From positions 1,020-65,019 of the forward strand of contig CAYJVT010000002.1 of assembly GCA_964373695.1 (NCBI GenBank): a DNA stretch of 64,000 nt, written 5' to 3'. Numbering within the stretch: position 1 is the first letter of the stretch; each line of letters opens with the position of its first letter. Below, piece after piece: positions 5,630 to 5,853 of this stretch. The stretch is from an uncultured archaeon (GTDB lineage Archaea > Aenigmatarchaeota > Aenigmatarchaeia > GW2011-AR5). The notes under the pieces were generated by a model. The model had not been told where the DNA came from. It ran no database searches and saw nothing but the letters and a program-made list of their open reading frames with translations. The position numbers and the translations under genes were made by a program.

Positions 5630-5853
5630 GCCAGGATGGCGGAGCTAATCCATGAAGGGGTAAATCCCTTCGGGATGTCGCAAATCGATGGATTTGCAAC
5701 ATGCTCAAGGTATGAAAAGGTCTTACAGCCTTTTATGACTATGAGCGTCTCTAATGGTCCAACGCGCTAGCCTTGAGAGCTAGTATGCTTCACTGAAGGA
5801 GCCTCGAAGGCTTTTCGAAGTTGCATGCGCAGGTTCGAATCCTGCTCCTGGCG
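5630..5853 (+). tRNA. Unusually long (224-nt) intron-containing tRNA; isotype undetermined
   Basis: Perfect 7-bp acceptor GCCAGGA (5630–5636) / TCCTGGC (5846–5852); T-arm GCAGG-TTCGAAT-CCTGC; U8-G9; D-stem GCG/CGC flanking a structured insert (hairpin GAAGGG-GTAAAT-CCCTTC). About 135–150 nt must be intronic. Anticodon could not be assigned by eye. Confidence 0.7.

Follow-up and report, generated by a model that had tools for sequence, protein, structure and literature searches.

Which tRNA, if any, is encoded by a 224-nt stretch with the two strands of an acceptor stem at its ends, and which parts of it would have to be removed to obtain a tRNA of mature size? This question was raised by positions 5630–5853 of a 64,000-nt stretch of DNA (the window, forward strand) from an uncultured groundwater archaeon. 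The neighboring Pelota protein shares 89% (L001) and 72% (L002) identity with those of Aenigmatarchaeota groundwater MAGs, and many Aenigmatarchaeota homologues were found for the membrane protein encoded immediately downstream of the tRNA gene; judged from these two proteins, the organism belongs to the Aenigmatarchaeota (DPANN). The original prediction described a mature-size tRNA split by an insert of about 135–150 nt, and left the anticodon unassigned. In this study, the locus was identified as a tRNA-Ser(UGA) gene of 224 nt with two introns, one in the D-loop (intron 1) and one in the variable arm (intron 2), and we consider it highly probable that it is a functional gene whose introns are both of the protein-spliced archaeal type. 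The parts of the gene are as follows.

5630–5646 (+): exon 1, 17 nt; read directly, identical in 10 orthologues and part of the tRNA accepted by ARAGORN
5630–5636 (+): acceptor 5′ strand GCCAGGA in exon 1; read directly
5639–5642 (+): D-stem 5′ strand GCGG in exon 1, following U8 and G9; read directly
up to 5646 (+): start of the D-loop in exon 1, A14 G15 C16 U17
5647–5754 (+): intron 1, 108 nt; inserted into the D-loop at U17/U17a, immediately before G18G19; relaxed bulge-helix-bulge motif
5755–5793 (+): exon 2, 39 nt; invariant among orthologues except at three variable-loop positions
5756–5757 (+): G18G19 in exon 2, part of the remaining D-loop
5762–5765 (+): D-stem 3′ strand ACGC in exon 2, followed by G26
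5767–5783 (+): anticodon arm CTAGC-CTTGAGA-GCTAG in exon 2; found by hand
5774–5776 (+): anticodon TGA, inside the arm 5767–5783
5784–5793 (+): 5′ half of the variable arm in exon 2, TATGCTTCAC
5794–5822 (+): intron 2, 29 nt, in the variable arm; strict hBHBh′ motif, the top match of the bulge-helix-bulge scan
5823–5853 (+): exon 3, 31 nt, beginning with the 3′ half of the variable arm, GCATGC
5829–5845 (+): T-arm GCAGG-TTCGAAT-CCTGC in exon 3, directly upstream of the 3′ acceptor strand; read directly
5846–5852 (+): acceptor 3′ strand TCCTGGC in exon 3, a 7-bp perfect match to GCCAGGA
5853 (+): discriminator G; CCA is not encoded

ARAGORN in default mode reported no tRNA at 5630–5853, and the unspliced locus gave no match, RF00005 included, at Rfam gathering thresholds. 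A permissive Rfam search returned a partial tRNA match at 5779–5853 (24.2 bits vs. a gathering threshold of 29, E = 0.008). This sub-threshold match, with mismatched acceptor pairs, was the only trace of a shorter tRNA starting near 5760–5780, a possibility that the original prediction had itself named. The perfect 7-bp acceptor complementarity and the canonical T-arm on which that prediction was built were both seen at the positions listed above, and the gene length of 224 nt was confirmed. The acceptor stem, a GTTCRA-type T-loop and the discriminator expected of a tRNA were all found, while the D-, anticodon and variable arms agreed with a class II serine tRNA solely after both introns were removed. 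Further, the 224-nt stretch folds far better than shuffled sequences (z = −5.9), and six copies of the T-loop motif GGTTCRAWTCC are present in the window vs. 0.21 expected.

In-silico removal of 5647–5754 and 5794–5822 produced an 87-nt class II cloverleaf that was accepted by ARAGORN as Ser(tga), so a cloverleaf can be obtained by intron removal, whereas products from which either intron alone was removed gave no tRNA call. In the ARAGORN fold, the spliced D-arm consists of a 3-bp stem plus G13:A22 and a normal 11-nt D-loop, AGCUUGGUCCA, and the variable arm of 16 nt has a 5-bp stem; A14, G15, G18G19, U33 and the T-loop GTTCGAATC are all present. Archaeal tRNA-Ser has G73 and a long variable arm, with which the discriminator G found here is consistent. 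The insert length had thus been well estimated, as the total is 137 nt (108 + 29), and the mature-size tRNA is indeed split, but by two separate introns rather than by one insert. The D-stem GCG/CGC had been drawn across an imperfect hairpin; this hairpin is real and corresponds to hairpin 1 of the D-loop intron (5648–5676), but the CGC in question, given without coordinates, is evidently the intron triplet 5679–5681, and the true one is at 5763–5765.

The variable-arm intron follows the strict rule. The bulge-helix-bulge scan demanded a 4-bp helix and a cut 2 nt 3′ of the helix on each strand. Intron 2 has an outer helix GTATG/CATGC (h = 5 bp), a central helix CTTC/GAAG, an inner helix of h′ = 5 bp, and the bulges AC|T and TT|G. 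It was found in nine of ten orthologues with lengths of 20–29 nt, and all nine form 4/4 central pairs at the required spacing. The central helix covaries among them, being CTTC:GAAG, CCTC:GAGG or CTTC:GGAG. The remaining orthologue, L010, represents a naturally occurring allele that lacks intron 2, and its sequence at this site, TATGCTTCAC|GCATGC, is identical to the junction that ligation of the window exons was predicted to give.

The D-loop intron qualifies as a relaxed motif only. Its central helix is formed by exon GGAG (5641–5644) and intron CTCT (5749–5752; CTCC in relatives), placing the cuts after CT|A and AA|T. With the junctions fixed by the mature sequence, 4/4 pairs at the correct spacing were found in 10/10 orthologues vs. 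2.2% of random junction pairs, this chance rate being calculated from arbitrary pairs of junctions. The flanking helices are minimal (h = 1 bp, h′ = 1–2 bp) and the strict hBHBh′ form is absent; the 5′ cut lies in a multi-helix junction, and the 3′ “bulge” continues into the D-loop. The last two intron nucleotides vary (AA/AT) among orthologues, and the mature sequence is constant. As the exons are invariant, covariation cannot test the exon–intron pairings.

We regard 5647–5754 as quite probably the correct junction of intron 1. Junction 5644–5751 (helix GGCG:CGTC) also yielded a serine tRNA accepted by ARAGORN, yet it replaces G15 and shifts in L028, and the mature D-loop would then differ among orthologues whose exons are otherwise identical. 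Junction 5646–5751, inside the shared CTAAT, gave an 89-nt product that was rejected by ARAGORN. A helix proposed by RNAalifold between exon positions 9–17 and the intron 3′ end was also set aside, because the 5′ cut would then fall within paired sequence and because the intron's own closing helix would have to compete with it. The bulge-helix-bulge scan also flagged 5709–5748 as a nested inner intron, but this candidate lacks an outer helix and the gene model works without it.

Orthologues were taken from syntenic contigs, from L001 and L002, and from one metagenome match (L009); L008, one of two matches of a metagenome pattern scan, was a chance match within a coding region and was discarded. 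All of the ten distinct orthologues yield an 87-nt tRNA by excision at fixed junctions. The exon with the 5′ acceptor strand and D-arm start is identical in the ten, while the inserts diverge, are gained or are lost, so the 5′ acceptor match is not coincidental. Only four exon positions vary, vs. about 39% of intron 1 positions being invariant. The sequence comparison thus shows purifying selection on the exons; all ten orthologues are close relatives (82–100% identity in the neighboring protein), so part of the conservation reflects the short divergence time.

Intron presence or absence differs at four sites among the ten orthologues. The D-loop intron is present in 10/10, with lengths of 93–146 nt, the 146-nt form being that of L009 and L011. 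L001 has an extra intron of 47 nt near positions 22–24, whose central helix scores 0/4 at the boundary set by the regular expression. L002 and L010 share an extra intron site at 23/24 (91 nt), and L002 also has an 83-nt T-loop intron at 59/60, in which both the central and the inner helix are perfect; the additional introns in these two orthologues form 4/4 central pairs at the required spacing. The L002 orthologue (9025–8628, minus strand) therefore reaches 398 nt with four introns. These differences show that introns were recently gained and lost between genomes that are nearly identical. The window gene, at 2.6 times its mature size, is long for an archaeal tRNA precursor, as had been claimed, but not extremely so, with orthologues of 294 and 398 nt.

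At more distant syntenic loci the gene is absent (L012 and L015). L013/L014 carry a 285-nt tRNA-Ser-like gene at the syntenic position (2530–2814, plus strand), with the anticodon CGA by eye and with apparent inserts in the D-loop, anticodon loop, variable arm and T-loop that bear no relation to those of the window. Since the distant loci lack the gene or differ in this way, the D-loop intron can be traced only in a narrow clade.

Nine orthologues were aligned and folded for intron 1, the tenth (L020) sharing the D-loop intron of L017. All nine follow a conserved plan, a four-way junction made of the exon–intron helix, two hairpins and a third arm, and the elements in the window are as follows.

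5648–5676 (+): hairpin 1, ATCC..GGAT, after one A; RNAfold −14.1 kcal/mol
5680–5697 (+): hairpin 2, GCAAATC-GATG-GATTTGC, after one G
5701–5748 (+): third arm, with closing helix, AAG bulge and K-turn-like motif; modular alignment in nine orthologues
5701–5706 with 5743–5748 (+): closing helix of the third arm, ATGCTC with GAGCGT; consensus AYG(N)YUC with GRGCGU
5707–5709 (+): AAG bulge of the third arm
5710–5715, 5716–5733 and 5734–5742 (+): K-turn-like motif, composed of GTAT-GA, hairpin 3 and TAT-GA-CTAT

The inner stem of hairpin 1 shows compensatory GC-to-AU changes among orthologues. At the hairpin 2 site, all nine folded orthologues form a hairpin (−3.4 to −15.4 kcal/mol), with unrelated sequences of differing lengths. 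The K-turn-like consensus is RUAU-GA, then hairpin 3 (10–42 nt, unrelated sequences), then NNN-GA-CUNY, and at the 3′ end of the intron CUCY pairs with exon GGAG, followed by the final two intron nucleotides. For the helices that could be placed in register in a MAFFT alignment, 98.9% of cells were paired vs. 41–56% with slid partners. Three pairs change on both sides, so the covariation is modest, as expected of sequences from close relatives. A stronger sign of structural constraint is the complete replacement of hairpins 2 and 3 beside junction sequences that stay fixed.

Judging from its consensus, the third arm contains a putative K-turn. The pattern GA-[hairpin]-NNN-GA-CUNY was found in eight of nine orthologues (L023 has GG), with unrelated hairpins in place of the C-stem, and the non-canonical stem has an R:Y pair that covaries (GC in four, GU in three, AU in two). 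It does so if the arm is read in the K-turn register; the symmetric internal loop preferred by RNAfold shows no such covariation. Intron 1 matched no Rfam family credibly, and Rfam searches at E ≤ 10 with the gene regions of the window, L011 and L002 detected no ribozyme or group I/II core. Group I and group II introns are larger, and a 108-nt insert is too small for either. The proposed comparison of the insert with C/D snoRNA models gave no credible Rfam match; the best, snoU2-30 (E = 0.87; 18 bits vs. a threshold of 60), does not recur in L011 or L002.

The exons, junctions and conserved intron architecture described above show a three-exon, two-intron structure; three other explanations of the locus were weighed against spliced introns. 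The 108-nt D-loop insert might be a permanent expansion segment that the mature tRNA retains, so that splicing would remove intron 2 alone. The splice motif of the insert is weak (h = 1, h′ = 2), both its degree of structure and its conservation are high, and it occurs in 10/10 orthologues with no insert-less allele found; moreover, it sits at D-loop positions 16–17, which are solvent-exposed and vary in number among tRNAs. However, the 3′ end of the insert pairs with the exon (GGAG:CUCC) at bulge-helix-bulge spacing in all ten orthologues, its two ends do not pair together as would be expected of an expansion segment, and its excision precisely restores a canonical 11-nt D-loop. As we know of no tRNA with a D-loop of more than 100 nt either, retention of the insert is considered very unlikely. 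The failure of standard detectors at this locus, together with a neighborhood that is an insertion hot spot with a toxin–antitoxin cassette and repeat elements, could be read as signs of a tRNA pseudogene in decay, in which insertions have built up. That would be hard to reconcile with exons that are essentially invariant in ten orthologues while the introns diverge, with intron helices that stay paired through compensatory changes, or with exon–exon junctions that each restore a perfect cloverleaf, and decay is accordingly given a very low probability.

Other gene models are very improbable. The partial Rfam match could indicate a normal-size tRNA at 5779–5853, and ARAGORN with option -i calls a tRNA-Phe(gaa) with a single 132-nt intron. 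The former is below the gathering threshold and has non-standard acceptor pairs and no proper D or anticodon arm. The latter assumes one intron in the anticodon loop only, and would retain the 29-nt segment that is absent from L010. Neither explains how inserts vary independently at four separate sites in the orthologues. Brute-force combinations of introns also produced many spurious ARAGORN calls (Phe, His and Leu), and the orthologues agree only with Ser(UGA).

For the spliced tRNA-Ser(UGA), which thus remains the preferred reading, maturation may be pictured by analogy with known archaeal pathways. A precursor of about 224 nt would be transcribed and its ends trimmed. The archaeal splicing endonuclease (EndA) would cut the strict variable-arm motif (intron 5794–5822) and also the relaxed D-loop motif (intron 5647–5754), where the GGAG/CUCU helix would direct cuts 2 nt 3′ on each strand. 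The ligase RtcB would then join the three exons to the 87-nt class II tRNA, to which CCA would be added after ligation, since none is encoded. A broad-specificity endonuclease is probably needed for the D-loop site because the helices flanking it are no longer than 1 and 2 bp, and the K-turn-like arm may bind L7Ae or otherwise help to fold the four-way junction so that the relaxed site is cut. The host clearly processes disrupted tRNAs, since at least six other intron-containing tRNA genes are found in the window.

It is doubtful, although conceivable, that intron 1 has its own function as a conserved RNA module predicted to bind L7Ae through a K-turn. If so, it could serve as a built-in chaperone that shapes the four-way junction to allow cutting of the very relaxed site. 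Alternatively, it could be a single-unit C′/D′-like guide for the anticodon loop of its own tRNA, in which case the wobble U34 would be 2′-O-methylated before or after excision. Intron CUCAAGG is complementary to the anticodon loop from C31 to G37 over 7 nt (8 nt in L009-type sequences), and a count of five nucleotides from the AUGA box would make U34 the target. The same nucleotides also take part in the intron's own closing and non-canonical helices, and the CUCAAGG 7-mer occurs 19 times in the window. Terminal C (RUGAUGA) and D (CUGA) boxes were searched for across the nine orthologues and no conserved box was found, only an internal AUGA ... RUGACUA pair. A box C/D guide proper was therefore rejected, as terminal boxes are absent, there is one K-turn-like unit only, the guide strand is paired internally, and no Rfam family matches in the window, L011 or L002.

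Several of the further intron-containing tRNA genes in the window were missed or mis-called. A tRNA-Ser(CGA) gene at 4841–4943 (+), with a 20-nt anticodon-stem intron at 4872–4891, was missed by default ARAGORN and Rfam; its spliced product of 83 nt was accepted by ARAGORN. The L001 and L002 orthologues of this gene carry different introns, in the D region, anticodon loop and T-loop. The 3′ end of tRNA-Ser(CGA) and its trailer form a 19-bp direct repeat, GCCGCCGGCGCTTTTATCT, at 4934–4952 and 5497–5515, and the two copies flank a cassette of an antitoxin and a RelE/ParE-like toxin (5016–5488). At the same spot, L001 has no cassette, L010 has DUF7557 and ParE, and L017–L020 have MazE and PIN, so that the site looks like a tRNA-3′-end integration hot spot for toxin–antitoxin cassettes.

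A repeat element of about 45 nt, ACMAATCCCTTYYTT..AAGGTCTTGGTGAACCCCAARRAAC, was found at 6790–6835 and 44650–44695 of the window and also in L002, L010 and L012. In relatives it makes up the tRNA-Ser(UGA) introns at sites 23/24 and 59/60 as well as T-loop introns in other tRNA genes; in the window, one copy lies inside the D-loop of a probable tRNA-Asn gene, the other immediately 3′ of a tRNA-Gly gene. It looks like a family of mobile tRNA introns; a weak match to an Rfam CRISPR repeat model (E = 1.3) is probably due to chance. The tRNA-Asn(GUU), at about 44633–44790 (+), is a probable gene with a D-loop intron. At the tRNA-Gly(GCC) locus (6697–6863, +), the gene has a 19-nt non-canonical intron at 6741–6759, and a second copy of its 3′ end, GGAAATCCAGGCAGGCGCA at 6845–6863, lies beyond the gene and the repeat element; this copy may have arisen by target duplication, or it may represent an alternative 3′ exon.

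Next to Pelota lies a probable tRNA-Leu(CAA) gene (8309–8158, −; about 152 nt). Roughly three introns, located in its D-loop and anticodon arm, would have to be removed, and many boundary combinations yield a Leu(caa) cloverleaf; a 279-aa ORF (7391–8230) overlaps it at the ORF N-terminus. Introns were also located at 44889–44918 and 44938–44965 of tRNA-Phe(GAA) (44880–45012, +), and tRNA-Ile(UAU) (27368–27209, −) has two introns of 54 nt and about 30–33 nt. At 26595–26510 (−), the Cys(ACA) called by ARAGORN becomes Val(CAC) after removal of a 14-nt intron, 26580–26567.

Standard annotation misses the tRNA-Ser(UGA) gene and several neighboring tRNA genes in the window. Because such genes are missed, the tRNA complements of DPANN archaea are under-counted and inferences of “missing tRNAs” in these reduced genomes are unsafe. 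As intron presence differs at four sites, the orthologue set amounts to a natural experiment on how tRNA introns are gained and lost, with a repeated and apparently mobile intron family among them. The structured 93–146-nt D-loop intron with its minimal splice motif would be a useful substrate for defining the requirements of splicing endonucleases.

Multi-intron archaeal tRNA genes with D-loop, variable-arm and T-loop introns and relaxed motifs are already well known. In the Thermoproteales, such genes have introns at non-canonical positions and intron transposition has occurred (Sugahara 2008 and Fujishima 2010, as reviewed in PMC4033280 and PMC4090602). The genes described here are similar in having several bulge-helix-bulge introns per gene at D-loop, variable-arm and T-loop sites, in mixing strict and relaxed motifs, and in the recurrence of similar intron sequences in different tRNAs; unlike the Thermoproteales, which are Crenarchaeota, the phylum is the DPANN Aenigmatarchaeota. 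The 2014 reviews gave archaeal tRNA introns as 11–129 nt long, with medians of 12–25 nt and up to three per gene (PMC4033280, PMC4090602). The window gene, with two introns of 108 and 29 nt, is within these limits, but its relatives exceed them with the 146-nt intron of L009 and L011 and the four introns of L002.

Among DPANN archaea, those with an L3-loop EndA show more tRNA gene disruption, and hidden disrupted tRNAs that await identification were explicitly predicted (Kaneta et al., 2018, PMC5829648), a prediction that the present genes exemplify. Disrupted tRNAs and a broad-specificity EndA have been described in ARMAN-2/Micrarchaeota and other DPANN members (PMC3239211, PMC3488258, PMC5829648). 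The 59/60 intron of L002 resembles that of the ARMAN-2 tRNA-Cys, both being non-canonical introns of DPANN archaea, and as in those systems the relaxed motifs would need an endonuclease with a specificity loop. Methanopyrus kandleri pre-tRNA-Glu(UUC) combines a relaxed HBh′ D-loop intron with a canonical one (PMC5829648). The tRNA-Ser(UGA) gene likewise has a relaxed D-loop intron and a strict-motif intron, but the latter is in the variable arm rather than at 37/38, and the D-loop intron is a 108-nt multi-hairpin structure.

The tRNA-Trp intron of Euryarchaeota encodes a box C/D guide RNA (PMC4090602). Like it, the D-loop intron is long and conserved, with a K-turn-type motif and complementarity to its own anticodon loop, and it bears on whether long tRNA introns beyond the tRNA-Trp C/D intron have functions. 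Unlike the tRNA-Trp intron, it has no terminal C/D boxes and one K-turn-like unit only, its would-be guide is base-paired, and it is located in the D-loop, not at 37/38. A full-text literature search of partial coverage found no description of these Aenigmatarchaeota genes or of their conserved long D-loop intron. The long D-loop intron of tRNA-Ser(UGA) is unusually conserved and structured.
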